The notes under the pieces are model-generated. The model worked only from the letters and a program-made list of their open reading frames with translations. It did no database searches and had not been told where the DNA came from. Shown one piece after another: positions 2,105 to 36,093 of a DNA stretch of 42,608 nucleotides (positions within the stretch are counted from its first letter, which is position 1; each line of letters starts with the position of its first letter). Where the stretch lies: the sequence record JN882298, one strand, 5' to 3'. The translations under genes and the position numbers were made by a program. Origin of the DNA: Escherichia phage phiKT.

Positions 2105-2923
2105 ATGAACTACCGGGATTCCGATTGGTATTTGGCTATAAAAGACCACCCGGTCGGTACGCGGTTACGGATGGCACACGATGGCTGCTCCACAAGTGAG
2201 GCACTCATCGTTACAAAACAGGATTCCGGGGTAAGCGCGTATTGCTTCCGTTGCAAGTGGAACGGATTCGTTGGCGCGCCTCCTGAATCGTTGGCCCAAA
2301 AGTTAGAGCGTAAATCTCGTGAGAAGCTCGCCAGCAAGGTGATGAAGGACAGTAAGGCGTTACCATTGCCTAAGTGTGAAAACATCGCTGAATGGCCGCT
2401 GGAAGCGCGTATTTGGCTCTATAAAGCTGGACTTAATAACCATGACATATCTGAAGCTGGTATTTATTATCATGGAGGCAGTAATCGTGTGGTCATTCCT
2501 GTATTTGATGGTGACGCGCTGGTGTATTGGCAAGCCCGTGGATTTGACCCTGAAGCGCCTAAGTACCTCAATCCGTCGGTGGTGGACCGGACTGCTCTTG
2601 TCGCCAACTGGTACGGCTCTGAAAGATGCCTTGTTCTTACAGAGGACTGGCTATCAGGCTACCGGGTACATCGGGCCACAGGCTTCCAAGTATATGCCCT
2701 CCTTGGGACAACACTCACGGACGCAATCGCGGCCCAAATCGTCTACAACCGTGTACCAGTGGCCGTATGGCTCGACCCGGATTCGGCGGGCCAGACTGCG
2801 GCGCGGAAGATTATTGCTAAACTCAGTGCGCTGAACCACCCGGTTAAAAACATCGTCACTGAGCGTGACCCTAAACTTTACAGTGACGCAGAAATCCGGG
2901 AGGTGTTAGGTGAGTCTGGATAG
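2105..2923 (+). CDS. DNA primase (zinc-ribbon + TOPRIM-like)
   Basis: N-terminal Cys cluster (C..C..CFRC); TOPRIM-like acidic motifs (LTEDWLSGYRV, VWLDPDSAG); sits immediately upstream of the helicase as in phiKMV-type phages. Confidence 0.8.
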   Translation: MNYRDSDWYLAIKDHPVGTRLRMAHDGCSTSEALIVTKQDSGVSAYCFRCKWNGFVGAPPESLAQKLERKSREKLASKVMKDSKALPLPKCENIAEWPLEARIWLYKAGLNNHDISEAGIYYHGGSNRVVIPVFDGDALVYWQARGFDPEAPKYLNPSVVDRTALVANWYGSERCLVLTEDWLSGYRVHRATGFQVYALLGTTLTDAIAAQIVYNRVPVAVWLDPDSAGQTAARKIIAKLSALNHPVKNIVTERDPKLYSDAEIREVLGESG

Positions 2924-4193
2924 TGAATTTCTCCGTAGTATCCGACATCGCTCTAAGTTCAAAGAGCGCATAGGCACTACGCCGCTGTATCTCTTCGAAG
3001 AGAAAACGAGAGATATTGTTAAGCTAATGAGCCGTTACTTTCGACAGTACAAATCAGCGGAGGTTATAGAGAAAGATGACTTCATCACTTGGATTAATGA
3101 ACTGAAGGGTGAGAAGTTTACGGATGCAGATAAGATTCTCTTTGATGCACTCATGGAAGATTTTGAGTACGACCTGTCCGCCGCCGCCGAGCAATTCCTG
3201 ACGGAGCGGTTGCAGGAGTCCGATTTAGTCTACAAAACCGCCGACCTTATTGAGAAATGGTCGAACGGTGATGAGATTGAAATTATTGAGCAAATGAAAA
3301 TCGTCACCGACAAAGCGGCATTTGGCCGTGCTGACCGGGACGGTATTAAAGTAGTCACAGAGTCGATTGAGGAGATTCTGGAGCACGCCGGGAGCAAGTG
3401 GGGATTCGAGTGGTCATTGCCAATATTAGCTAAGGCCATGCGACCCGCACAGCCGGGAGACATGATTCTCATAGCTGCCCGACCGGACCAAGGGAAGACT
3501 ACATTCATCGGTAACATTGTCCGGCCTTGGCTGGCACAACTGGATGAAATATTTCCCGATGAAGAACGCTGCATTCTCTGGCTCAATAACGAGGGACCGG
3601 GTACTCGTATCAAGCTCCGAAATTACCAATCGGCCCTCGGCCTGACTATCCCAGAAGTGGACCAGATGGCTCATACTCGTGGGATGCTGGACGAGGAATA
3701 CAGGAAGGTGGTAGCCAATGCCGACCGCCTGATTATCCTCGACGTCCACGGCAAGAACACGGCGCAGATTGAACGCAAAATTACGGAATTGAAGCCCGGT
3801 GTTATAGTCTGGGACATGCTGGATAAGGTGAAGTATGTTACAGAGGACGCTTTTAGGAACACTCGCACAGACGAATATCTTGAAGGCTTGTACTCATGGG
3901 TACGCGAATCCGGTGTTATATATGACTGCGTTAACGTCGTATCAACACAGTTATCCGGTGATGCTGAAAATATGCAGTATCCGCACCTAGGAATGCTCAA
4001 GGACTCAAAGACAGGCAAGCAAGGTACGGCTGATGCCATCATTACGTTCGGGTCGGTTGACACTTATCCCCGTACACGATTCATCGGTCTTACTAAAAAT
4101 AAGCTCAATATGGGCCGCGCTACGAGTCGCCTAGGCGAAGTCATATTCGACGGTGCACGTGGCTTAATCACTATGCCAGAGGTAGAGAAATGA
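2910..4193 (+). CDS. DnaB-like replicative DNA helicase
   Basis: Walker A (AARPDQGKTTF) and RecA-fold motifs; GTG start with GGGAGG RBS; overlaps the primase stop. Confidence 0.85.
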   Translation: MSLDSEFLRSIRHRSKFKERIGTTPLYLFEEKTRDIVKLMSRYFRQYKSAEVIEKDDFITWINELKGEKFTDADKILFDALMEDFEYDLSAAAEQFLTERLQESDLVYKTADLIEKWSNGDEIEIIEQMKIVTDKAAFGRADRDGIKVVTESIEEILEHAGSKWGFEWSLPILAKAMRPAQPGDMILIAARPDQGKTTFIGNIVRPWLAQLDEIFPDEERCILWLNNEGPGTRIKLRNYQSALGLTIPEVDQMAHTRGMLDEEYRKVVANADRLIILDVHGKNTAQIERKITELKPGVIVWDMLDKVKYVTEDAFRNTRTDEYLEGLYSWVRESGVIYDCVNVVSTQLSGDAENMQYPHLGMLKDSKTGKQGTADAIITFGSVDTYPRTRFIGLTKNKLNMGRATSRLGEVIFDGARGLITMPEVEK

Positions 4194-4777
4194 TTGATAC
4201 AGTAGTTTTAACGGCATCCGGCCAATACGTGAATATCCTTGCGCCAACCGAGGATGAGATTGACATCCATGATATTGCTCATGCGTTGGCTAATATCAAT
4301 CGGTTCAACGGTCACACCGCTGTACCCTACACGGTAGCAGAGCACTCATTGCGCTGTTCAGCCTTGCTTAAGGCGTGGGGATACACTCCCTCATCTCAGT
4401 TGGCTGGCCTGCTGCATGATGCTACCGAGGCGTATATCGGCGACGTGGCTACCCCACTCAAACAACTGCTGCCAGAGTTCAGAGTCATTGAGAAGAATCT
4501 GGAAAAGGTTATTGAGAAGAAGTTCGACATTATCATTAATGACCGTCCAGAAGTCCATTACGCAGACCTCCAGCTACTGGCATCCGAACGCAAGTACCTG
4601 ATGCCGGAAACGCCTGAGTATGTTTGGGAGATTATCGACGGGATTGACCCGACGACCTACTCCACAGTGACCGGCAACAATCCTAAGTGGGGTGGTCGGA
4701 CGCATAAGGAACTGGTCGGCTGGTTCATTAAACGCTTTGAGCAACTTATCAACGAGGTACACAATGTTAAAAATTGA
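4190..4777 (+). CDS. HD-domain phosphohydrolase (5'-deoxynucleotidase-like)
   Basis: H...HD...D metal-binding pattern (AEHSLRC ... LLHDATEAYIGDV); ATGA overlap with the helicase stop. Confidence 0.7.
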   Translation: MIDTVVLTASGQYVNILAPTEDEIDIHDIAHALANINRFNGHTAVPYTVAEHSLRCSALLKAWGYTPSSQLAGLLHDATEAYIGDVATPLKQLLPEFRVIEKNLEKVIEKKFDIIINDRPEVHYADLQLLASERKYLMPETPEYVWEIIDGIDPTTYSTVTGNNPKWGGRTHKELVGWFIKRFEQLINEVHNVKN

Positions 4778-5057
4778 CCTGACTATCGGCGCATTTAGGA
4801 TAACCTCTGATGAACACAATTACATTCTGCACCAGTGCAAGCCTAAGACCAAGGGTAAGGACGTAGGAACTTTACATTGGGCGGTGGTCGGGTACTACAG
4901 CAGTCTGGAGCACGTCGCTGGTAATATCGCAAAGTGTGCCGCAGACGGCGTTACCGAAGGCTTCCCTATCTACCAACTCGACGACCTGAAGAAAGTAGAA
5001 CGGGCTATCTCAGAGGTAGGCACGGAACTGGTTAAGGCAATACAGGAGAAAATTTAA
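4764..5057 (+). CDS. Hypothetical protein
   Basis: Track ORF 4692..5057; internal ATG at 4764 with GAGGT RBS; TAATG overlap with the DNA polymerase start. Confidence 0.45.
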   Translation: MLKIDLTIGAFRITSDEHNYILHQCKPKTKGKDVGTLHWAVVGYYSSLEHVAGNIAKCAADGVTEGFPIYQLDDLKKVERAISEVGTELVKAIQEKI

Positions 5058-7450
5058 TGTCCTATGTAACGTTCGATTTGGAGACAACGGTCAAATCCTT
5101 GGCTAAACGCAAGGCCAGCCCGTTCCACCCGAACAATTTCATAGTGGCGATTGGTTGGAAACGACAAAACTGCTCTGTTCAGGGTAGTTACAGTAAAACG
5201 GGCGAGCACCATCCCAATTGGTTCGAAGGTCTTTTGGCAGGTACTAAATTACTTGTCGGCCAGAATATCAAATTTGACATTCTCTATGCTATAACCCGGT
5301 CCGAATCGGCATACGCCGCTTGGATGAAATGGGTAGAGGCCGGAGGAAATGTTTGGGATTGCCAGCTTGCCGAGTATTTACTGCGAGGTCAGGAACAATC
5401 AGCCCACATGTTGTCGATGGATGAGATGGTCGAGGAGTACGGCGGGAACACGAAGGTGGATGAAGTCAAAGCCATGTGGGAAGCAGGCTACGATACACCG
5501 GAGATTCCTGAAGACTTGCTGATGCGTTATCTCTGCGGTGAGACAAAGGATGATGGTACTCGCGTGTTCGGCGATATTGAGAACACCGAAGCAATCTTCC
5601 TCGGTCAATTGAAGAAGGCACGTAAGCGCGGCCACCTGAAGTCCATCATGCTTAACATGGGGAGCCTGTTGGCCTCCATAGAGATGGAAAAGAACGGTAT
5701 GGCCGTTGACCTGAAGCTGGGCTTAGAGCAAGCCGAGAAGCTGAAGGAAGCGTGCAACGAACTCCGCGAGAAAATGCAGCAGTACCTGCCAAGCGACCTC
5801 CCTTGCGAGTTTAACTGGGGTTCCGGGCACCACTTATCGGCCCTTATCTTCGGCGGCGCGATTAAGTACAAGCAGAAAGCCGAGATTCTGGATGACGAAG
5901 GCAACAACGTCTACCCGCAGATTAAGGCGGTTGGGTACGAAACAGTGACCGGGGACTTCGTTATACCGGGACACGGTATCTCAGAAGAACGTTTTCAGGA
6001 GATGGTCGAGGCCGGGAACATCGCCACGTACAAGGCTGGGAAGAAGAAGGGCCAATTCCGGTCCAAGCAGGTTAGCATTGATGACCTGTCCCGACCTAAG
6101 ACGAAGATTATGGAGTTCCGGTATAACATGCCGGGGTTCACGGAGCCGGACCCGAAGTGGGAGACGAAGCACGAAGGCGTTTATGCCACGAACGCAGACG
6201 TCATTGAGGAACTGGGAACGCGTGATGTACCGTTCCTGAAAGACCTCACCAAGCTCAACAAAATGGATAAAGACCTGACGACATACTATATCTGCGAAGA
6301 CCCTAAGAAAGAAGGTATGTTCAAAGGTATGTTGACGCTGGTCGGCGATGACGGCATTATCCACGGCAGTATTAACCACACCTCCACAGTGACCGGGCGA
6401 TTCTCTGCGAGCAACCCTAACCTCCAGAACATCCCCCGTGCGGACACTTCTGAAGTTAAGAAGCTGTTCATCTCGCGCTTCGGCGACGACGGCCAGATTA
6501 TTCAGTCTGACTTCTCGTCTCTGGAGATTTACGTTCAGGCATTACTCACAGGTGACAAGCAACTGCTGGCAGACCTGAAGAAAGGTCTGGACATGCACTG
6601 CGTTCGCGTCGCCAGTAAATTCGGGGTGTCTTATGAGGAAGCAGTCAAACGTTGTAAGAAGGATGTTAACGCGCCGGACTACAAGCTATGGAAGTCTCGC
6701 AGGACTGGATGTAAGGAATTTTCATTCCAACGAGCATACGGCGCTGGAGCGGCAGCAGTGGCGAACTCTACGGGGATGTCTATTGAAGACGTGCAGGACC
6801 TTATCAAGTTAGAGGACGAACGTTACCCGGAGATTGAACCATTCTATGCAAGAGTTACAGCAGCAATTAACGAAAGCCGAGTACCAACAAGTCTGTATGT
6901 ACATCATCCAGAGATACGGGGACTGTCTGTCTGCATCGGCAAAGGATTTTATAGAACGCCTGATGGGAAGAAATACACTTACCGAGAGTACCCTGCTCCG
7001 GCTGGTTTTATCAAACGCGGGGGTGCACACGCCTCCTTCTCGCCTCCTGAAATTAAGAACTACATTGTGCAGGGTACAGGTGGCGAGTGGGCGAAAGCTG
7101 CAATGTGGCTTGCAGTCCGCACATTCTATCGCTTCAACAACTTCGGAGGAAAGGCGCTCTTAGTCAACGTAGTCCACGATGCGGTGTATGTAGATGGCCA
7201 CAACGATGTACTCGTAGAGGCATGTGCGGCGCTGGAGGCATGTATGTTTGGTGCTAACGAACTCATGGAGTACCGCTTTGACTGGCAGGTAGATGCGCCA
7301 GTGCCTGCGGAAACAACATTCGGGGTAGCTATGTATTACGAGACTGGCGCGGATACCTTAGACGGCTTTAAGGACAAGGTTAAAGAGATGCGTATGTTAA
7401 ACAGAGAGTTATATTTAGGAGGCTATACCCCGTCATGGGAGAATGTATAG
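5057..7450 (+). CDS. DNA polymerase, family A, with 3'-5' exonuclease domain
   Basis: 797 aa; N-terminal exonuclease motif (FDLETT); Pol I-like palm/fingers signatures; conserved position in T7-like replication module. Confidence 0.9.
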   Translation: MSYVTFDLETTVKSLAKRKASPFHPNNFIVAIGWKRQNCSVQGSYSKTGEHHPNWFEGLLAGTKLLVGQNIKFDILYAITRSESAYAAWMKWVEAGGNVWDCQLAEYLLRGQEQSAHMLSMDEMVEEYGGNTKVDEVKAMWEAGYDTPEIPEDLLMRYLCGETKDDGTRVFGDIENTEAIFLGQLKKARKRGHLKSIMLNMGSLLASIEMEKNGMAVDLKLGLEQAEKLKEACNELREKMQQYLPSDLPCEFNWGSGHHLSALIFGGAIKYKQKAEILDDEGNNVYPQIKAVGYETVTGDFVIPGHGISEERFQEMVEAGNIATYKAGKKKGQFRSKQVSIDDLSRPKTKIMEFRYNMPGFTEPDPKWETKHEGVYATNADVIEELGTRDVPFLKDLTKLNKMDKDLTTYYICEDPKKEGMFKGMLTLVGDDGIIHGSINHTSTVTGRFSASNPNLQNIPRADTSEVKKLFISRFGDDGQIIQSDFSSLEIYVQALLTGDKQLLADLKKGLDMHCVRVASKFGVSYEEAVKRCKKDVNAPDYKLWKSRRTGCKEFSFQRAYGAGAAAVANSTGMSIEDVQDLIKLEDERYPEIEPFYARVTAAINESRVPTSLYVHHPEIRGLSVCIGKGFYRTPDGKKYTYREYPAPAGFIKRGGAHASFSPPEIKNYIVQGTGGEWAKAAMWLAVRTFYRFNNFGGKALLVNVVHDAVYVDGHNDVLVEACAALEACMFGANELMEYRFDWQVDAPVPAETTFGVAMYYETGADTLDGFKDKVKEMRMLNRELYLGGYTPSWENV

Positions 7451-7821
7451 AGCACACACAAGTGGGTGACCTGTTCGGATATGCAAACACCCGGCGCGGA
7501 GGACGTCCCATGAAGATGCACCGCGCCGTGTTCCTTGATGTGCATGGGTATCTGCCAGAAGTTGTCAGACATACGTGTGACAACCCGCGCTGTATAAATC
7601 CTGAACATCTGCTTGCAGGTACGCAGAAGGATAATATGAGGGACTGTGTTGAGCGCGGTCGGAGAACACCTCCACCGAGACACAACAAGCTATCACAGGA
7701 ACAAGTATTAGAAATACGACGTGGAACCACGCCAGCGAAAGACCTCGCCGAACGCTTCGGTGTGTCTAAAGTAACCATTTACAATGTACGCAAGTTAAAA
7801 AGAGGGTATTACCATGGCTAA
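7435..7821 (+). CDS. HNH endonuclease (homing-endonuclease-like)
   Basis: HNH motif region (HRAVFLDVHGYLP ... HTCDNPRCINPEHLLAGTQKDNMRD); overlaps the 3' end of the polymerase gene; alternative start at 7510 with GGAGG RBS. Confidence 0.75.
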   Translation: MGECIEHTQVGDLFGYANTRRGGRPMKMHRAVFLDVHGYLPEVVRHTCDNPRCINPEHLLAGTQKDNMRDCVERGRRTPPPRHNKLSQEQVLEIRRGTTPAKDLAERFGVSKVTIYNVRKLKRGYYHG

Positions 7822-8752
7822 GCAATTTTCAGTTTTGAAGAAGAAAGAACTGCTCGTAGACCAGACCAAAGCAAGCACTGGTGGTGACTATACGCCACCA
7901 GCGGAAGGTCTGGCCCGTGCCCGACTCGTCGCCTACGTCGAGGTCGGCAAGCACGAGAAGGTCAGTAAGCAATACGGCACCAAGGTCCAGAGCATGGTGC
8001 ATCTGACCTTCGAACTGTCCGGTCCGAAGTGGGAGCCGAAGAAGCTGGATGATGGTACTCTGATTCCGCAGCGTATCACCCTGAAAGAGAACCTGTCCAC
8101 TAACACCAAGGCGCGATTCTACAAGCTGTTCCTGAAGCTCCGCGATGGTCGTGAGGACATTACTCACTTCGCCGAAATGCTGGGTGAAGCCTGCCTCATC
8201 CGTATCAAGCACCGTGAGTACGAGGTGGATGCTGGCGGCAAGAAAGAGAAGCGCGTTGCGGTCGATGTGTACTCTCCAGACAGTGGCTGGTCAATCACCC
8301 CGCCGTACATCCTGAAAGATATTATGGATGAGAACGACGAACCGACTGGCGAGCAAGAGAAGAAGCACGTCACCGTCTCCGACCCGGTTAGTGACCTCCG
8401 CCTGTTCATCTGGGATTGCGCGGACAAAGAGCAATGGGACAGCCTGTACATCGAACCGGGTGACGGCGACCGCAGCAAGAACGTGTTCCAAGAACTGATT
8501 GTCAACGCGAAGAACTTTATCGGTTCCCCGGCTGAAGCAGCGGCACACGGCTCTGAATCTCTGGAGGCCATTCTGAAGGGTGGTAAGGGTGCCAGTGAGT
8601 CTGCCACTGACGATGATGATGATGACGGCTCAGAAGGCGCTGTAGAGGATAAGAGCAGCAAGAAAGCTACCTCTGTTGTGAAGAAGGTCGTTAAGAAGAC
8701 GGTAGAGGCTGAAAAGCCTGCTGACGAAGATGACTTAGGGGATATTGACTAA
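7814..8752 (+). CDS. Hypothetical protein with strongly acidic C-terminal tail (possible ssDNA-binding/recombination protein)
   Basis: 312 aa; C-terminus DDDDDDGSEG ... ADEDDLGDID resembles the acidic tails of phage SSB-type proteins; functional call is tentative. Confidence 0.5.
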   Translation: MAKQFSVLKKKELLVDQTKASTGGDYTPPAEGLARARLVAYVEVGKHEKVSKQYGTKVQSMVHLTFELSGPKWEPKKLDDGTLIPQRITLKENLSTNTKARFYKLFLKLRDGREDITHFAEMLGEACLIRIKHREYEVDAGGKKEKRVAVDVYSPDSGWSITPPYILKDIMDENDEPTGEQEKKHVTVSDPVSDLRLFIWDCADKEQWDSLYIEPGDGDRSKNVFQELIVNAKNFIGSPAEAAAHGSESLEAILKGGKGASESATDDDDDDGSEGAVEDKSSKKATSVVKKVVKKTVEAEKPADEDDLGDID

Positions 8753-9722
8753 CATGACAAAGTTCAAGCTGCCTAAAGACCTTGGTTCGATGGTGCAGCC
8801 TGAACCTGTTAGCATTGTTCCTGAAATGGTTAAGGGTCGCCGCTGCCACATCGACGGCGACTACTTAGCCTACTTCGCCGCTGGCGGTGAGAATATGCCT
8901 GTGAGCATATGCCGCCAAGTGGTTCGGGAACGCGCCGAGAAGTTCCGGGTGATGACAGGTTCGGAAAGCATTCTACTGCAACTATCCGATAACCGATGCA
9001 CGAAAGGCGACCGGGTGTTCATTAGTACCACCCAACCATACCAAGGCCAACGCCTGTCCGGCAAGAAGCCGGGTAACTGGCAGGCAACCCGCGAGTATAT
9101 CGACTCTGGTGCTCATGGCATTCCAATGAAGGTTTGGAAAACGCGAGAGGCCGATGACGGAGCGGCATACTGTGCCGAGACGCAGAGCGGAGGCTTAGAT
9201 GCCATTTGTACTAAAGATAAAGATTGGCGTATGTTTGCTGGCCTGCACTGTATCTGGGATACTTTCCAATTGGTGCAAGTCAACCCCGGAGACTTTCGCG
9301 TCGATGGTCCTGCTCCTGTTAAGGATAAAAACGGCAAGACCCCACTTCAAAAGTATTATGGTCATTTCTTCTTCTGGCAGCAGATGCTATACGGAGACAC
9401 GGCAGACCACATCCCCGGTATACACGGGATTGGCGAGGCCACTGCCGCCCAACTTCTGCTTGACTGTACTAATAACGCCGAAGCATTCGATGTTGTCGCT
9501 GATATTTACAGGAAAAAGAAACGGGAGGAGTGGTCTGATTATATGGTTGAGCAGGCTGCGCTTCTATGGATGCGAACTGACCGACACGCAGACCTGCTGG
9601 ATTTCCTCAAGATATTCCCGGAAGATGAGGAAATTATCATTGCTGCGGAGAAGATGAGGCAGCGTGTTCTCGAAGATAAGGCTACCTTAGAGAGCATACT
9701 CAAAGGTTACTCACATAAATAG
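8745..9722 (+). CDS. 5'-3' exonuclease (FEN/T7 gene 6-like)
   Basis: PIN/FEN-type acidic motifs (HIDGDYLAY ...); position after the polymerase as in T7-like phages. Confidence 0.8.
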   Translation: MTNMTKFKLPKDLGSMVQPEPVSIVPEMVKGRRCHIDGDYLAYFAAGGENMPVSICRQVVRERAEKFRVMTGSESILLQLSDNRCTKGDRVFISTTQPYQGQRLSGKKPGNWQATREYIDSGAHGIPMKVWKTREADDGAAYCAETQSGGLDAICTKDKDWRMFAGLHCIWDTFQLVQVNPGDFRVDGPAPVKDKNGKTPLQKYYGHFFFWQQMLYGDTADHIPGIHGIGEATAAQLLLDCTNNAEAFDVVADIYRKKKREEWSDYMVEQAALLWMRTDRHADLLDFLKIFPEDEEIIIAAEKMRQRVLEDKATLESILKGYSHK

Positions 9723-9732
9723 AGGGTATTCA

Positions 9733-10215
9733 GTGATGATGAAATTAACCCAATCCCTAATCCCTGTAGTAAGACGCAAGATGGCAGCAGAGCAAGGGAA
9801 CCGATGTCTTTTGTGCGAAGAGATTATGGAAGATAAGCAAATGGTTCTGGACCACGACCATGATACAGGCCACTGTCGCGGGGTTCTCCACAGAGGCTGT
9901 AATGCCATGCTCGGACATCTGGAAAACAACCGTGCCCGTCACCTGCTGAAAGACGACGACAAGTTCGCTACGTTCCTCGGGAACATCATGGCGTATATCA
10001 CCATGGACTGCTCGCACCAGCCACTGCACAGCACTCATAAGAACGCTGCGGAGAAGAAAGCCGCAGCATATGAGAAGTCCCGGAAGAAACTGGTAGCCTC
10101 CCGGATTGCCTCCAACCCAACCGCCGCCGACGCTATCAAAGCGAAGGAAAAGGCACTGCGTAAAGTACGTGCTGACCGTAACCGTCCTACTGTTAAAGGA
10201 ACAAATGATGCCTAA
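9733..10215 (+). CDS. Endonuclease VII-like Holliday junction resolvase
   Basis: Motif C-L-L-C ... DHDHDTGHCRGVLHRGCNAMLG matches the zinc-binding/HNH-like core of T4 endonuclease VII. Confidence 0.75.
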   Translation: MMMKLTQSLIPVVRRKMAAEQGNRCLLCEEIMEDKQMVLDHDHDTGHCRGVLHRGCNAMLGHLENNRARHLLKDDDKFATFLGNIMAYITMDCSHQPLHSTHKNAAEKKAAAYEKSRKKLVASRIASNPTAADAIKAKEKALRKVRADRNRPTVKGTNDA

Positions 10216-11182
10216 AACTAGCCTGATTGCACTATTCACCAAGGAACAACACCAATCAATCCTCGGTAAGCATCTGGATAACACTGCTGCTGCCAAGGCA
10301 TACAACGAACTGCTGGGCTGGAATAGCCCGGTGGTCTACCGCCAAGTTGTAGCGTACTGGCGCAAGATTTACATCGACCATGGTGGTAAGAAAGGCGAGG
10401 CTATTCGTGAAGAGAAACAAGCTGTTAAGCTGGTTCAGCCATCACCAAGTGACGATATTGGTAACACTGACGTCCCTGACGTGTGTCGCCGTATCCTTGT
10501 GGTTGGTGATTTACATGCTCCTTATACTCATCCCGACGCTATTGCTTTCCTTCGCCATGTCCGAGACAGTTATGTTCCTGACATGGTTGTTCAGGTAGGT
10601 GATGAGACGGACGGCCACGCAATCAGCTTCCACGACTCGGACCCGAATCTGGATAGCGCCGGGGTCGAATTAGAGAAAGCCAAACTTGTACTGGAGAAAC
10701 TACATGACTTGTTCCCTAACCTTCTCGTTTGCGATTCCAATCACGGAAGTCTGGTGTATCGCCGCGCTAAAGCTCACGGTCTTCCAGTACAGTTCATCAA
10801 GAAATACCGCGATATACTGTTCCCGGAGCACGGTGCTAAGAAGTGGAGTTGGGCGGATGCTTGGGTTCTTAATACCCCACTCGGCCCTGTACGGTTCCAG
10901 CATCAGGTATCTGGTGACTTCATGCTCAACGCAAGCCACGAACGAACGTCTCTCGTTCTGGGTCACGAACATGGTCGCTTTGAAGTGCAATACGCAGCTT
11001 CTTCCTCTGCGCTGTATTTCGGGGCTTATGCCGGGTGTCTGATTGACCGTAAGTCTCTGGCCTTTGCCTACGGTAAGTTGCACCGCAAGAAACCAATCCT
11101 CGGCGTGATGGTAATCACCGATGGTTGTCCGCAGTTAATCCCTATGCTGATGAACGAAGAAGGTCGTTGGGTCGGTCGCTAA
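10205..11182 (+). CDS. Calcineurin-like metallophosphoesterase
   Basis: Track ORF 10106..11182; ATG at 10205 with AAAGGAA RBS; motifs GDLHAPY, GDETDGH, DSNHG, GHEHG. Confidence 0.7.
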   Translation: MMPKTSLIALFTKEQHQSILGKHLDNTAAAKAYNELLGWNSPVVYRQVVAYWRKIYIDHGGKKGEAIREEKQAVKLVQPSPSDDIGNTDVPDVCRRILVVGDLHAPYTHPDAIAFLRHVRDSYVPDMVVQVGDETDGHAISFHDSDPNLDSAGVELEKAKLVLEKLHDLFPNLLVCDSNHGSLVYRRAKAHGLPVQFIKKYRDILFPEHGAKKWSWADAWVLNTPLGPVRFQHQVSGDFMLNASHERTSLVLGHEHGRFEVQYAASSSALYFGAYAGCLIDRKSLAFAYGKLHRKKPILGVMVITDGCPQLIPMLMNEEGRWVGR

Positions 11183-11222: not shown

Positions 11223-11942
11223 ATGTTAGTAATGCTCTCTGGCGCGATTGGCGCTGGCAAAGATACCTTCGGTGAGTTCCTGTACGACTCATTTGACAAG
11301 TTCGGCTACAACGTGGAAGTGGTGAAGTTTGCCGACCCCATTCGTGAAGCTGCATTTAAGCTCGGATTCAATCCAGATGACCGGGCAACCAAGGAAGTAC
11401 CTGCAATACGCCATTATAAACTCTCAGAACTTGATGAGGCCATTTTTACTACTCATACCTGCCTGACACCTTACGAGCGCCGAATGGTCGCTGTACGAGT
11501 TCACCAGAGATTAATTAACATCCGTAAGGAAAAGCACGATGGCATTTATAAACCTGTCGTCAGTACGCGGGAGTTTATGCAGGTGGTTGGCGGCACTGTC
11601 CGAGATGCAGATGTGGATTACTATATCAAACACATGTTATCCAATGTACCCGTTGGGCGAATTAACATCTGCACTGACTCTCGGTTCCTTAACGAGCAAA
11701 AAATCGGGGATTATTCAATCTACGTTGAGCGTCCAAACAACCCGCTGGCGGTTAATACTCTCGACGCCTCGGAAGCAGCACAAGCATCGCTCCGAGGGGC
11801 GGCGAAGAAAGTAATCCTGAACAACAGCACTCTGGATAATCTGGCAGAAATGGCAGACTATGTGGCTACAACACTAATTTCAAAAGGGTATTGTGATGAT
11901 GCAGTTAAAGAGTCAAGCGGAACTGGAATCCTTATCGAGTGA
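11223..11942 (+). CDS. P-loop kinase (dNMP/nucleotide kinase-like)
   Basis: Walker A (GAIGAGKDT) at the N-terminus; 239 aa; 3' end overlaps the RNAP start. Confidence 0.55.
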   Translation: MLVMLSGAIGAGKDTFGEFLYDSFDKFGYNVEVVKFADPIREAAFKLGFNPDDRATKEVPAIRHYKLSELDEAIFTTHTCLTPYERRMVAVRVHQRLINIRKEKHDGIYKPVVSTREFMQVVGGTVRDADVDYYIKHMLSNVPVGRINICTDSRFLNEQKIGDYSIYVERPNNPLAVNTLDASEAAQASLRGAAKKVILNNSTLDNLAEMADYVATTLISKGYCDDAVKESSGTGILIE

Positions 11943-14367
11943 ACGCGGCCTTGCCAAGCTGATGGCCGAGTGTGAGCAGGCTGAATCAGCGGGGCGTGCA
12001 TCCGGCGCGTTTTATGCCAAGCAGTTGTTAGAGCGTTTTGTTAACCGTATGGCCGAACGTATTGACCACGAGATGGCGAATCCGGGTGCTGGCCGCGCGA
12101 AAGCGCATAAGAAACTGGTCGCTGTGTTTGACTCAAAAGTCACTGCGTTTATTTCTGTATCAACCACATTGAATATGCTGATGGTCAACGAGCAGACACC
12201 GGGCACCAGCCTTAGTCGCGCCCTCGGCAATGCAATGTACAACGAACTGTTCTGCACCACGTTCGACGATGCCAACCCGGACCTGTTCCACACCATCTGC
12301 AAGGACTTGGATAAGCGCCAGAGCAAATCCAGCCGCCACCGCATGACTGTGCTGAAGAATCAGGCAGCGAAGAAGGGTATCGCGTGGGAGAACTGGACCG
12401 TCACCGAAATCCTTCAGGTTGGTGAGTGGTGTCTGGATAATCTGGTGTCAGTTGGCCTGTGCGAAACGCATACCGAGGTGTCTCGCGGTAAGGCGAAGAT
12501 GTACGTGGAACTGTCCGACGAGGCGCTGGGAATGATTGAGGATACCAAACGTCTGGTGTCCTTCTTCCGGCCCCAGCGCCTCCCGTTCGTAGAGAAGCCT
12601 CTGGACTGGACCGGGATTGTTGGTGGTGGCTACCATACTGCTCGTATGCAGAGTACGATGCCTCGTTGCATCAAAGCCAGCCCGACCCAGATGGATGTAC
12701 TCATAAAGCATCGTGACGACTACAAGGGTACGGTGGTGGCGTGCATTAACACTCTGCAATCGGTAGAGTGGCGTATCAACAAGCGTATTCTGGAAGTGCA
12801 GCAGCAGATGTTCCGTGGCTTTGAGCCGAAGAACAAGCCGGATGCGCTGGAGTGTCATAGCAAGGACGTTGAGGATTGGACAGAGGCAGATAAATCTCTA
12901 CACAGCCACTGGAAGAAGGAAATGGCTCGCTGGTACACAGAGCAGCGTGCAGAGCGTTATGCCGCTTCACGACATGCCTACACGTTGTCAGTGGCACGAG
13001 AGTTCGCTGACTACCCGCGTATCTGGTTCATGTACTTCGCTGACTGGCGGGGCCGTTACTACCCGGCCACCACAGGCATCTCGCCGCAGGGGACCGACAT
13101 CTCTAAATCCATGCTGGAGTTCGCCAATGGCAAGCCCATCTCTGACCCAATCGCAGAACAGTTCTTCTTCCTCCTTGGTTCAACTAAATTCGGATTCGAC
13201 AAAGGCTCTATATCCGAACGAGTTCAGTGGGTTCACGAGAATCACGAACTTATCATGGCGTGTGCCGACGAACCGCTACTTCATACTGATTTCTGGTACA
13301 GAGAGGCAGATAAGAAGACCCGTTACCAATTTCTGGCATGGTGTTTTGAATATGCTGAATACAAACGGTTCCCGGCTGGATTTGTATCACGACTTCCGGT
13401 ATCTCTTGATGGCACATGTAACGGCCTACAACACTATTCGGCGATGTTACGAGATTCGGTTGGTGCTAAAGCTACCAACTTGTTACCTGCTAACCGACCA
13501 AACGATATTTACGCGCAAGTCGCAGGCGTTGTCACCAACCTTCTTGAAAGCATGTCACCTGCTGACTTCCCGGCACTGACACGCGAATCTAAGCCTCTCA
13601 GCATCTATGAGGTGGATTTTTTCAGGAGGGGGTGGTTACACCACGGCATTAGCCGTAGCCTCGTTAAACGGTGCGTTATGACGTTACCTTACGGGTCCAA
13701 GAAGTTCAGCATGGGTCGCTTCATTAAGGGCGATTACATGCTGGATATTCACCCGGAAGAGTTCGACACCGACGACTACACCGACGCGGCGAACTTCCTT
13801 GGCGATATAGTCTGGAAGGCTATCGGGATGGTGGTAGAGAAGGCGGTCGGCGGCATGAGCTACTTTCAAGGCACCAGCCGAGCAATTACCCGCAAGAAAG
13901 ACGTTGAGGTCATCCAGTGGCCGAGCATGACCGGACTTCCAATTGTTCAGGATTATTGGAAGACAGAGTACGTACAGTTCCGCTCAGTACGTGGTGGTGG
14001 TGCTCGACTGAAGTGTCTGGTCGAAACGGACAAGATTGACAAGCTGGGACATGCCAACGGAATCGCACCCAACATTGTTCACAGTCTGGATGCAGCGCAC
14101 TTAACGTTCGTTACGCTGGCCGCAGCAAAGGCTGGCATTGACTCCTTCGCAATGATTCACGACGACTACGGAACCCACGCAGCCGACACAGCACTCCTGT
14201 TCAAGCTCATCCGTGAAGAGTTCGTCAAGATGTACGAGCAAGACCCTTTCACAATGATTGCTGAAGCTCTTGAAGCACAAGCAATATCCAAGTATGTTCC
14301 TGCCAGACCAGAGTTCGGCGACCTCGACTTACAGCAGGTCAATCACTCCGAATACTTCTTCCTGTAG
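11896..14367 (+). CDS. Single-subunit DNA-directed RNA polymerase (T7-like)
   Basis: Motifs DGTCNGLQHYSAM and HDDYGTH match T7 RNAP active-site motifs A/C; ~820 aa; followed by a terminator and a phage-promoter-like motif. Confidence 0.9.
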   Translation: MMQLKSQAELESLSSERGLAKLMAECEQAESAGRASGAFYAKQLLERFVNRMAERIDHEMANPGAGRAKAHKKLVAVFDSKVTAFISVSTTLNMLMVNEQTPGTSLSRALGNAMYNELFCTTFDDANPDLFHTICKDLDKRQSKSSRHRMTVLKNQAAKKGIAWENWTVTEILQVGEWCLDNLVSVGLCETHTEVSRGKAKMYVELSDEALGMIEDTKRLVSFFRPQRLPFVEKPLDWTGIVGGGYHTARMQSTMPRCIKASPTQMDVLIKHRDDYKGTVVACINTLQSVEWRINKRILEVQQQMFRGFEPKNKPDALECHSKDVEDWTEADKSLHSHWKKEMARWYTEQRAERYAASRHAYTLSVAREFADYPRIWFMYFADWRGRYYPATTGISPQGTDISKSMLEFANGKPISDPIAEQFFFLLGSTKFGFDKGSISERVQWVHENHELIMACADEPLLHTDFWYREADKKTRYQFLAWCFEYAEYKRFPAGFVSRLPVSLDGTCNGLQHYSAMLRDSVGAKATNLLPANRPNDIYAQVAGVVTNLLESMSPADFPALTRESKPLSIYEVDFFRRGWLHHGISRSLVKRCVMTLPYGSKKFSMGRFIKGDYMLDIHPEEFDTDDYTDAANFLGDIVWKAIGMVVEKAVGGMSYFQGTSRAITRKKDVEVIQWPSMTGLPIVQDYWKTEYVQFRSVRGGGARLKCLVETDKIDKLGHANGIAPNIVHSLDAAHLTFVTLAAAKAGIDSFAMIHDDYGTHAADTALLFKLIREEFVKMYEQDPFTMIAEALEAQAISKYVPARPEFGDLDLQQVNHSEYFFL

Positions 14368-33925: not shown

Positions 33926-34297
33926 ATGTCCGACTTCGAAGAAGAGGATGTCACACAGGAAGAGAACGGGTCTTCGGACCTGTTCAAACCCTTAGAGACT
34001 ATCCCCGGCGCTACCGCCAACCGGGACCAGATGGCAGAGCTACACCAGCTTATCTGCATCGCCCTGTCCGCACGTATCCGGGCAGGTATCTGGTCCTCCG
34101 GCGATATTGCCGCAGCTACAAAGTTCCTGAAGGACAACAACGTCACTGCCGATGTTGGCGACAACAAGGCACTCCAGAAACTCCGCGATGAGATGGAGAC
34201 TAAGCAGAAGGCACGTCGTGAAGAACGGACGTATCTCTCTGAGCAGGAACTCGTCAAACTCGCAACGGAAGAACTGAATAACGAGATATGGCACTAA
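33926..34297 (+). CDS. Terminase small subunit
   Basis: 123 aa acidic protein immediately upstream of, and overlapping, the terminase large subunit. Confidence 0.55.
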   Translation: MSDFEEEDVTQEENGSSDLFKPLETIPGATANRDQMAELHQLICIALSARIRAGIWSSGDIAAATKFLKDNNVTADVGDNKALQKLRDEMETKQKARREERTYLSEQELVKLATEELNNEIWH

Positions 34298-36093
34298 GAG
34301 AATCAGCAGAAAGAGAAGAACAACGGCTACTTGAACTCGCAGCACTGCGGGACATGTACCCCACGTTCCTACCGTTTCTGATTGATTTCATGGTGATGCT
34401 CGGATTCTTCGTCACACCGGTACAGAAGCTCATTGCTCAATTCCTTGAGTACGGGCCTCTGTATCGGATGGTGCAGGCCCAGCGTGGTCAGGCGAAGACT
34501 ACCATCACAGCCGCATATGCAATCTGGCGACTTATCCACGATACCAACCTTGCCGTGTTGATCGTCTCGGCAGGGGGCAAGCAGGCGAACGAGATTTCAA
34601 CTCTCATCGTCCGCTCGTTCAAAACGTGGGATAGGCTGGCCTGCATGTGTCCTGACGCCTCTATGGGCGACCGTGAGTCAGTCGAAGCATTCGACGTTCA
34701 CTACAACTTAAAGAGGCTGAATAAATCTCCATCCGTGGCCTGTACTGGTATCACGGGTAACTTGCAGGGTAAACGTGCGGGTCTGCTTATCGCGGACGAC
34801 GTTGAGTCCCAGAAGAACTCCCTGACTGCGGTCATGCGTGAGAACCTCCTGAACCTGACTCGTGACTTTACCTCAATATGCTCCACCGGGGATATTATCT
34901 ACCTCGGTACACCACAGACTACAGAATCAATTTATAACACCTTGCCGGGGCGTGGCTTTACTGTCCGCATCTGGCCGGGACGTTTCCCTAACGCAGAACA
35001 GGTGGAAGCCTACGGCGACCAGCTATGCCCTGTCTTTAGGATGAAGATTGCTTCACGCCCTGACCTGACTACAGGCTACGGGCCGGATGGGCTTCAGGGT
35101 GCTCCGGTTGACCCGGTAATCCTTGGTGAAGCCTTCCTGAACAAGAAAGAGATTGACCAAGGGACTGCATACTTCCAGTTGCAGCACATGCTTCAGACGC
35201 GCCTGATGGATGCTATGCGCAAGCCATTACACGCAGAGAAGCTGATTGTGGCCCAACTGCCGAAGCGGGACGGTCTGTTCCCTATCACCATTACGCGAGA
35301 AATCTCTGTACAAGCCTACATGCGCCGAAACGTCCTGAGCAAGCCTCTGGTATTCGGTGTGCCCGGTAGCGTGTCTAAGGACGTCGCTACGCTTCAGGGC
35401 GTATGCTTCTACATCGACCCCGCTGGTGGTGGTAAGAACGCGGATGAAACTGCATTCGCTTGTACCGGGTTCCTGAACTCCAATATCTTCTTGCTGGATT
35501 GGGGCGGCTTACCGGGCGGATATGCCCCGGATGTTATGACCGCTCTCGCCCAACGTGTGTTTGAAGTGCGGCCCAATGTTGTCAAAATCGAAAAGAACTT
35601 CGGTTACGGCGTTCCGCGAAGTATGGTTGCCGTACCTCTGGGCCATTTTGATAAAGCTGGTGTTAACCGTCCCGGCGTAGAGGACGATATGGTACACGGC
35701 CAGAAGGAGAAGCGAATCATTGATACGCTTGAGCCTGTAATGGGTCGTGGCTCGCTCATTGTTGACGAGCGTCTCATCAAGGAAGACGAAGACCAGACCA
35801 TGCGGTACAGCGCACAAATGCGTGTGACGTACTCCGGGTTCCTACAGATGGTTAATATCTCCTACGACAAAGATGCGTTGGTGCATGATGACCGACTGGA
35901 TGCTTTGGAAGGAGCGGTTCGTCATTGGCAGGATTGGCTGGCCAAGAACCAAGAGAAGGCCATTCAGGCTCAACGGAAACGTGAGTTCGAAGAGTGGCAG
36001 AAAGACCCGATGATGAAGAAGCGTTGTCAGTCCGTGAAGGAATACAATGCTGGTCGTCGTGGTAAAACCATGTTTGATAAGAGAAAACGCTAA
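34288..36093 (+). CDS. Terminase large subunit
   Basis: 601 aa; ATPase P-loop-like segment (QRGQAKTT) and C-terminal nuclease-type acidic motifs; position as T7 gp19. Confidence 0.85.
   Translation: MALRESAEREEQRLLELAALRDMYPTFLPFLIDFMVMLGFFVTPVQKLIAQFLEYGPLYRMVQAQRGQAKTTITAAYAIWRLIHDTNLAVLIVSAGGKQANEISTLIVRSFKTWDRLACMCPDASMGDRESVEAFDVHYNLKRLNKSPSVACTGITGNLQGKRAGLLIADDVESQKNSLTAVMRENLLNLTRDFTSICSTGDIIYLGTPQTTESIYNTLPGRGFTVRIWPGRFPNAEQVEAYGDQLCPVFRMKIASRPDLTTGYGPDGLQGAPVDPVILGEAFLNKKEIDQGTAYFQLQHMLQTRLMDAMRKPLHAEKLIVAQLPKRDGLFPITITREISVQAYMRRNVLSKPLVFGVPGSVSKDVATLQGVCFYIDPAGGGKNADETAFACTGFLNSNIFLLDWGGLPGGYAPDVMTALAQRVFEVRPNVVKIEKNFGYGVPRSMVAVPLGHFDKAGVNRPGVEDDMVHGQKEKRIIDTLEPVMGRGSLIVDERLIKEDEDQTMRYSAQMRVTYSGFLQMVNISYDKDALVHDDRLDALEGAVRHWQDWLAKNQEKAIQAQRKREFEEWQKDPMMKKRCQSVKEYNAGRRGKTMFDKRKR

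Follow-up and report, generated by a model that had tools for sequence, protein, structure and literature searches.

Escherichia phage phiKT carries a short open reading frame (ORF) wedged between its DNA polymerase gene and the next conserved gene of the replication module. Is this ORF, which encodes an HNH endonuclease, a mobile gene that spreads by cutting polymerase alleles without it, or does it serve the phage in another way? We addressed this question in the 42,608-nt stretch of phiKT DNA in record JN882298, the whole of which we call the window; all coordinates are those of this stretch, on the plus strand unless stated. phiKT is a T7-like coliphage and a PGT2-type Autographiviridae phage (Ermolevavirus). 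Its nearest sequenced relative, Escherichia phage PGT2, is collinear with it genome-wide at a median identity of 97% per 100 nt, and the two sister phages share one isolation site, horse faeces (PMC5773715). Comparing the locus among relatives, we find that the ORF at 7435-7821 is probably a functional free-standing homing endonuclease gene, which would spread by intronless homing with HNH-less polymerase alleles as its probable target.

The HNH gene, its protein and its junctions

The HNH gene starts with ATG and encodes 128 amino acids before its stop codon. A sequence-only reading of this DNA had placed it at 7435-7821, overlapping the 3′ end of the polymerase gene, and we confirm this position with an overlap of 16 nt. 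The length of the ORF is uninformative, because an antisense ORF of 132 amino acids overlaps the same stretch without a family match. The antisense ORFs at 7380-7778 and 7423-7683, which have no family matches, were taken as chance ORFs. We call the HNH ORF coding because its protein matches Pfam HNH_3 (PF13392; E 2.3e-10, 40.4 bits against a cut-off of 24.8, amino acids 28-69) and PHROG 59 'HNH endonuclease' (E 1.7e-26), because 269 homologues were recovered from a large protein collection at E <= 1e-10, and because the ratio of non-synonymous to synonymous substitution rates (dN/dS) is 0.09. This ratio comes from the 94%-identical homologue in the relative L087, with 22 synonymous and 8 non-synonymous differences. 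The gene is under purifying selection and is not decaying. An exact-protein look-up of the phiKT HNH protein found nothing on record, and a sequence search of the PDB gave only spurious matches to concatenated RecA chains, with per-domain E-values >100. The guanine-cytosine profile around the gene is unremarkable and gives no compositional hint of a foreign origin.

The HNH_3, or His-Me finger, nuclease core occupies amino acids 28-69 (7516-7641). A predicted C-terminal helix-turn-helix (HTH) DNA-binding domain follows at amino acids 84-117 (7684-7785); the protein matches HTH_7 with 24.4 bits (cut-off 23.8), and the HTH region is the part that varies most among homologues. Aligning the protein with 70 homologues, we find M1, R30, H46, C48, D49, N50, C53, N55, H58, L59, G62, N67 and D70 to be invariant and C4, H7 and H29 nearly so. 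The phiKT protein has every one of these residues and is of full length compared with its homologues. Since all conserved residues are present, the HNH motif and the probable Cys/His metal site are intact. The roles of single residues (the catalytic His, and the metal-coordinating Asn and His among H46, N55, H58 and N67) are assigned from knowledge of the HNH motif. The Cys/His pattern comprises C4, H7, C48, C53 and H58, and a weak I-PpoI-like zinc-loop signal goes with it. In an AlphaFold model built on the homologue alignment (mean predicted local distance difference test score 87), a small beta/alpha nuclease core precedes three helices at the C-terminus. Foldseek ranked I-PpoI at the top for this model, although as a weak match (E 0.087). 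The protein is accordingly predicted to be a nuclease core with a C-terminal HTH DNA-binding module, the modular layout of monomeric HNH homing enzymes.

We then read the two junctions of the gene. Upstream lies the uninterrupted family A DNA polymerase gene (5057-7450, 797 amino acids; Pfam DNA_pol_A E 4.3e-37, with PHROG matches), and downstream a conserved gene of PHROG 862 (7814-8752, 312 amino acids). A Shine-Dalgarno sequence, AGGAGG (7417-7422), can be read inside the polymerase codons L-G-G, 12 nt upstream of the HNH ATG. It is also found in two other carriers of the gene, L087 and L092, whereas HNH-less alleles have ATGAACG at its position. The position of this Shine-Dalgarno sequence and the conservation of residues 1-25 among homologues support the start at 7435. 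The start overlaps the polymerase stop by 16 nt (7435-7450), where TCATGGGAGAATGTATAG encodes both SWENV* and MGECI. The start codon sits in TCATGG (polymerase codons S-W), and the alleles without the gene read TCATT(C/T) there. At the other end, the HNH stop codon (TAA) overlaps the start of the downstream gene by 8 nt (7814-7821, ATGGCTAA) and is made from codons 2-3 of that gene. Both overlaps are also present in the other carriers L087, L092 and L097. The Shine-Dalgarno sequence of the downstream gene, GAGGG (7802-7806), is supplied by the last HNH codons K-R-G (AAAAGAGGG); non-carriers have it (GAGGG or AGAGG) within the final codons of the polymerase gene. The HNH gene thus fits without a break into the translational coupling between its two conserved neighbours.

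Presence, absence and the linked polymerase allele

We compared 12 related loci at the polymerase junction, namely phiKT, PGT2 and ten more from large collections. Only four of them have an HNH gene there and eight lack it, so that the gene is far from being present in all relatives. Besides phiKT, the carriers are the metagenomic relatives L087, L092 and L097, whose HNH proteins are 94%, 56-58% and 50% identical to that of phiKT, respectively. The non-carriers include near relatives, as PGT2 and L095 are ~95% identical in backbone. The polymerase gene of PGT2 equals that of phiKT in length, aligns with it codon for codon and ends at the homologous stop codon (PGT2 12389), and the ATG of the next gene follows two bases on. 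L095 and L096 (downstream gene 95% and 79% identical, respectively), L093 (polymerase 80% identical in amino acids) and the more distant L005, L006 and L094 (polymerase about 47-52%) also lack the gene. L088 (polymerase 66%) has no HNH gene at the polymerase but one at the primase/helicase site. The earlier proposal that the gene is possibly a selfish element gains support here, since this pattern of presence and absence is what homing predicts.

Wider searches added few near relatives. In IMG/VR, scans with the HNH protein or the downstream gene recovered PGT2 as the only near relative and HNH homologues of at most 59% identity. A metagenome scan with the downstream gene gave two loci only, and no genome in IMG/VR or GTDB matched a sequence pattern for the polymerase tail linked to the HNH gene. 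A protein search with the C-terminal 237 amino acids of the polymerase did not return the near relatives, probably because the index omits genes truncated at contig ends; it served as an outgroup panel. As a separate observation, L097 has, besides its post-polymerase gene, a second HNH_3 gene (L097 3311-3721, 136 amino acids) directly upstream of its endonuclease VII gene.

The difference between phiKT and PGT2 is sharply bounded. Only two mismatches separate them over 6669-7164, and the 453 nt before 7163 are 99.6% identical. From 7165 to the polymerase stop at 7450 there follows a diverged 3′ tract, a co-conversion-like 'W-type' allele linked to the HNH gene, with 61% identity to PGT2 over the last 288 nt. 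With 56 differences over 61 synonymous sites, this tract is saturated at such sites, and its non-synonymous rate (dN) is 0.30, as against a synonymous rate (dS) of 0.096 and a dN of 0.005 in the rest of the gene. The downstream gene has 19 mismatches to PGT2 in 939 nt, three of which fall at 7831-7835, and identity is ~99% from 7836. Of the differing segment, 7165-7835, the first 286 nt belong to the polymerase 3′ end and the last ~20 nt to the next gene, and between them lies a net insertion of 363 nt. We place the recombination breakpoints at 7133-7164 and 7836-7896. They hug the HNH gene and the 286 nt of polymerase 3′ end, which bears out its suggested use as a marker of module exchange. 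Genome-wide, only 8.4% of the 100-nt windows fall below 85% identity to PGT2.

Next to other carriers, the tract looks quite different. Its identity is 93% to L087 and 90.6% to the HNH-carrying L092, compared with 61% to PGT2. The 453 nt upstream are only 82.8% identical to L092. Thus the tract groups with HNH carriers and the upstream part with PGT2, and the tract and its flanks differ in history. Through the polymerase end, the identity between PGT2 and L095 stays even at 92-95%, and the PGT2 tract stands at the expected distance from the outgroup L093; the phiKT-type tract is therefore the outlier.

The polymerase proteins separate in the same manner. All eight non-carriers read ...LHAxMExAS(E/D)FME... 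with the tail ...YMN.Y.P(S/T)..., and all four carriers read ...LEACM(F/C)GANELME... with the tail ...YL.GY.PSWE... Taking 53 other polymerases of the clade, we find the H in 51 and the E of the carriers in one. Likewise, the S is found in 51 and the carriers' N in none; the E is found in 34, and F, which three carriers have (L097 has C), in none. These counts indicate that the carrier allele is derived and the non-carrier LHAxMExAS allele ancestral. The derived allele and the HNH gene are perfectly linked, as the allele is found in 4/4 carriers and 0/8 non-carriers. L097 is a natural recombinant with an ancestral NMVHDAQYVDAH segment, a derived LEACMCGAN segment and the derived tail. Judging from this mixed allele, only the stretch from about 7232 on is obligatorily linked to the HNH gene.

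The contrast is also seen in the DNA of this region. The non-carriers compared (PGT2, L093 and L088) are near-invariant in GC.ATGGAAGCGGC.AGCGA.TT.ATGGAG, whereas the carriers compared (phiKT, L087 and L092) have many common fixed differences across the region. At 7232-7264, LEACMFGANEL in phiKT replaces the ancestral LHAAMEAASEF; given these fixed differences between carriers and non-carriers, we regard this segment as a candidate immune version of the endonuclease target. It lies just downstream of the VHD motif, which we take to be motif C of family A polymerases. From these differences we infer that the enzyme most likely recognises or cleaves the DNA in and around the codons for LHAAMEAAS, which lie 190-220 bp upstream of where the HNH gene is inserted.

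The carrier polymerase tail holds both the ribosome-binding site and the start codon of the HNH gene. The tail and the nuclease gene therefore form one unit, a putative cassette of ~670 bp (7165-7835).

PGT2 offers a mirror case. Its own HNH gene, gp17 (PGT2 7451-7852), sits at the primase/helicase junction. This junction is empty in phiKT at 2908-2913, where PGT2 carries gp17 (about 400 nt), and the phiKT primase (2105-2923) and helicase (2910-4193) genes overlap directly. The two HNH proteins are paralogues of 41-44% identity. We found no second copy of the family in the phiKT genome and none in the PGT2 genome. Beside the PGT2 site, the 5′ tract of the helicase gene (2948-3250) is diverged, with 69-80% identity to PGT2 as against 98-100% on both sides, and its dS is 1.22 compared with 0.17 in the remainder of the gene. 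This mirrors the polymerase tract beside the phiKT HNH gene. In the replication module, no alignable tracts are more diverged than those that adjoin the two HNH indels. Three large indels between phiKT and PGT2 have no HNH gene, and two of them, the phiKT-specific insertions of 501 nt and 167 nt, have no low-identity window adjacent.

Homing and its alternatives

We propose the following course of events. In a co-infection with an HNH-less relative, the enzyme would bind through its HTH domain and nick or cut the polymerase allele of that relative in its 3′ region, most likely within the DNA encoding LHAAMEAAS. Recombinational repair from the HNH-carrying genome would then copy the nuclease gene and, with it, the polymerase 3′ end that lies in between, i.e. 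by co-conversion. The polymerase allele of the carrier itself would escape cutting owing to its LEACMxGAN substitutions, and the polymerase tail and nuclease gene would move as one ~670-bp cassette.

A precedent is found in phage T4. Its HNH gene mobE lies between the essential genes nrdA and nrdB and depends on upstream transcription, and MobE was shown experimentally to make a strand-specific nick in T2 nrdB; flanking markers are co-converted, and its own allele is protected by polymorphisms (PMC2790892). The phiKT gene is likewise free-standing between two genes, and its pattern agrees with MobE on each point at the level of sequence. The two differ in that the putative target of the phiKT enzyme is upstream, in the polymerase 3′ end, and that of MobE downstream. 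In addition, the phiKT gene overlaps both neighbours, and its activity is predicted, whereas that of MobE is demonstrated. The likeness is one of organisation and behaviour, and we claim no close sequence relationship. We favour homing because of the purifying selection, the sporadic distribution, the breakpoints hugging the gene, the derived linked allele, the mirror case in PGT2 and the MobE precedent.

Several observations weigh against this explanation. First, L087 is uniformly about 93% identical to phiKT through the flanks and the cassette alike, so that an old residence followed by loss in PGT2 fits as well as a recent gain. Second, phiKT and PGT2 each have exactly one gene of the family, at different sites, which would also fit a useful, non-selfish function. 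Third, nuclease-free mosaic patches exist between the two genomes, for example at 8800-9400, at 10700-11100 and in the tail-fibre region; general recombination could therefore give similar boundaries. Finally, the HNH proteins at the polymerase junction are 50-58% identical among carriers while the linked tract is ~90% identical, a gap that simple recent homing of one element fails to explain.

The first and last of these points bear on the age of the insertion. Since four genomes share one junction architecture despite HNH identities of only 50-58%, the alignments suggest a single old insertion at the polymerase junction and then fast divergence of the nuclease, mainly in its HTH region. Short-term evolution of the gene is nonetheless constrained, as its low dN/dS indicates. 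Rather than having entered phiKT recently, the HNH gene may thus be of long standing, and PGT2 and L095 may have lost it or never acquired it. L092 illustrates the identity gap within a single locus. Its HNH gene (L092 727-1116) encodes the 56-58%-identical protein, and its polymerase tract just upstream is 88-94% identical to that of phiKT in DNA. Either the nuclease gene has far outpaced the polymerase tract of its cassette in evolution, or a homologue has taken its place.

Among other explanations, we first considered a domesticated nuclease that serves the phage, by degrading host or competitor DNA or by aiding replication-coupled recombination, so that its position would be incidental. 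The purifying selection on the gene, the single family member in each of phiKT and PGT2, and the long residence implied by the common junction architecture would all agree with such a role. So would the translational coupling within the replication operon. Scanning 6800-8900 for the sigma-70 consensus, we saw no promoter-like site, and the sole terminator-like site is on the minus strand. However, L096 has no HNH gene at either of the two known sites, within 10 kb of the replication module, and L005 and L006 have no homologue across the region from the primase to gp22. Therefore, the gene is dispensable, at least in the replication module. A housekeeping role does not predict the diverged tracts at both HNH indels or the linked derived allele, and a weaponised cutting of competitor genomes would mechanistically equal homing. 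We consider domestication unlikely.

The gene could instead be a passive passenger. Ordinary homologous recombination would then have set the boundary, and the nuclease, active elsewhere or inactive, would have had no part in the transfer. This draws on the low-identity patches without a nuclease gene (8800-9400, 10700-11100, tail fibre) and on the nine low-homology regions in the PGT2 genome paper, which were put down to recombination (PMC5773715). Yet both HNH indels adjoin the most diverged tracts of the module, and the HNH-free 501-nt and 167-nt insertions do not. The perfect linkage at near-invariant polymerase residues, and catalytic residues that are intact and under purifying selection, also speak against a bystander, which we hold to be distinctly unlikely. 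That the ORF is now inactive, either as the decaying relic of a formerly mobile endonuclease gene or as a product of chance, is highly improbable: homing-cycle theory predicts degeneration after fixation and nothing specific supports it here, whereas the ORF is full-length with all invariant residues, a dN/dS of 0.09, a strong Shine-Dalgarno sequence and domain E-values far past chance.

Two further candidates were rejected. A collaborative homing pair, i.e. an endonuclease acting with an ORF-less polymerase intron, is ruled out by the uninterrupted polymerase ORF and by the Rfam search of 4000-10500, which gave no match at E <= 1 and hence no intron. A terminase-associated HNH packaging factor (HK97 gp74-like) is ruled out on position. 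The gene is in the replication module, and the ORF collinear with the annotated large terminase of PGT2 (34288-36093) is about 26 kb from it.

The HNH family, its neighbours and what the cassette means

Searching with tblastn, we found relatives of the HNH protein in 1181 phage records, mostly Autographiviridae of enterobacteria, with a best identity of about 46% at high query coverage. These matches are often annotated beside primase, helicase, polymerase or exonuclease genes. The sequence-only reading had called the place after the polymerase the classic location for such genes. The description fits this HNH family only loosely. In 42 of 80 IMG/VR loci, a gene for replication or recombination (helicase, polymerase, exonuclease or endonuclease VII) lies no more than 400 bp from the homologue, but the homologue directly follows the polymerase gene in one locus of the 80, and it is just upstream of an endonuclease VII gene in 21 of them. 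The phiKT HNH protein is 54% identical to the primase/helicase-site protein of L088, 58% to the polymerase-site protein of L092 and 41% to PGT2 gp17. As L088, at another site, is about as near as L092, at the same site, the family shifts its insertion sites over evolutionary time.

The enzyme also resembles I-HmuI, the nicking HNH homing endonuclease of Bacillus phage SPO1 (PDB 1U3E), to which its predicted fold appears to come closest. As in I-HmuI and MobE, the HNH core is fused to a C-terminal HTH in the same modular layout. In contrast to I-HmuI, which lies inside a group I intron, the phiKT gene is free-standing and has no intron, and the two proteins are only 20% identical. To our knowledge, I-HmuI is not known for the Cys/His pattern and I-PpoI-like zinc-loop signal of the phiKT protein.

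Among near-identical phages of the T7/T3 group, phiYeO3-12 and Citrobacter phage SH2 have the endonuclease gene 5.3 right after gene 5, and SH1 lacks it and has another endonuclease gene elsewhere in its genome (PMC4925675). phiKT shares with the gene 5.3 phages the position after the polymerase gene, and phiKT and PGT2 show the same reciprocal presence and absence as SH1 and SH2. The T7-group tblastn matches of the phiKT HNH protein fall on genes annotated 7.7 and 2.8 and not on 5.3, and phiKT belongs to a different genus. Barth, Dunham & Seed (2023), working with ICP1 and other phages, reported that 29% of IPA-HNH neighbourhoods include a nearby polymerase gene, that HNH genes lie beside essential replication genes at genetic exchange boundaries, and that cognate same-site HNH genes may be distant homologues only (PMC10448857). 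The phiKT gene behaves similarly, being beside replication genes, marking an exchange boundary and having distant same-site homologues. Unlike the ICP1-type genes, which have AP2 DNA-binding domains, it has one of HTH_7 type, and its locus is no large 'HEG island' (homing endonuclease gene island) but only the ~670-bp cassette.

The replication module of phiKT runs in the order primase, helicase, HD phosphatase, a small ORF, polymerase, HNH, PHROG 862 gene, 5′-3′ exonuclease and endonuclease VII. The PHROG 862 product ends in an acidic, D-rich tail and matches, below threshold, the NCBIfam family NGO0469, whose members are phage replication initiation proteins (35.7 bits; cut-off 75). The recombination endonuclease VII gene (9733-10215, Pfam E 3.1e-15), kept in PGT2, is the second His-Me-type nuclease in the module and presumably an ordinary, non-mobile resolvase like T7 gene 3.

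Mosaicism is seen at other places as well. The patch at 8800-9400 covers 600 nt in the 5′ part of the 5′-3′ exonuclease gene (8745-9722), with 73-77% identity to PGT2 between flanks of 96-99%. No nuclease gene adjoins it in either genome, and mosaic patches therefore also arise without a homing gene. At 11156-11164, PGT2 holds ~530 nt (gp26, a hypothetical protein) that phiKT lacks, again with no nuclease gene. This insertion is ~100-150 nt downstream of a 10700-11000 patch of 81-85% identity, with an identical stretch between. The 167 nt without a PGT2 counterpart lie at 1935-2101, just upstream of the primase gene. The 501 nt (13787-14287; 167 codons, in frame) lie in the RNA polymerase ORF (11893-14367) and are missing from the single-subunit RNA polymerase gene of PGT2. 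The missing part includes the segment ...AMIHDDYGTH..., which resembles catalytic motif C. The PGT2 record thus seems to have a deletion or to be misassembled here, and phiKT seems not to have gained an insertion.

The HNH gene most likely belongs to a well-known kind of free-standing homing endonuclease gene. As the kind of element and its behaviour are already well established, current understanding is unchanged. We also entertain, as a tentative idea that may well be wrong, that the phiKT and PGT2 HNH genes, each linked to a diverged and putatively immune allele of the replication gene beside it, are a mutual-exclusion pair, each cutting the replication gene of the other phage in mixed infections. 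If so, this would drive the odd replacements beside the active site of the polymerase, where E, N and F stand for the near-invariant H, S and E, respectively, and it would amount to an incipient barrier, or to forced exchange, between co-circulating lineages. The overlaps with both neighbours would then lock the nuclease gene to the C-terminus of an essential gene.

The cassette is a clean natural case in which a nuclease gene of homing type has shaped the replication module of a phage. Its breakpoints, the saturated tract and the linked substitutions by the active-site motif give a concrete and testable guess of the target site. Few such enzymes have been characterised in T7-like phages, and the reciprocal HNH genes in two phages from one site provide a simple cross for homing and marker exclusion in this group.

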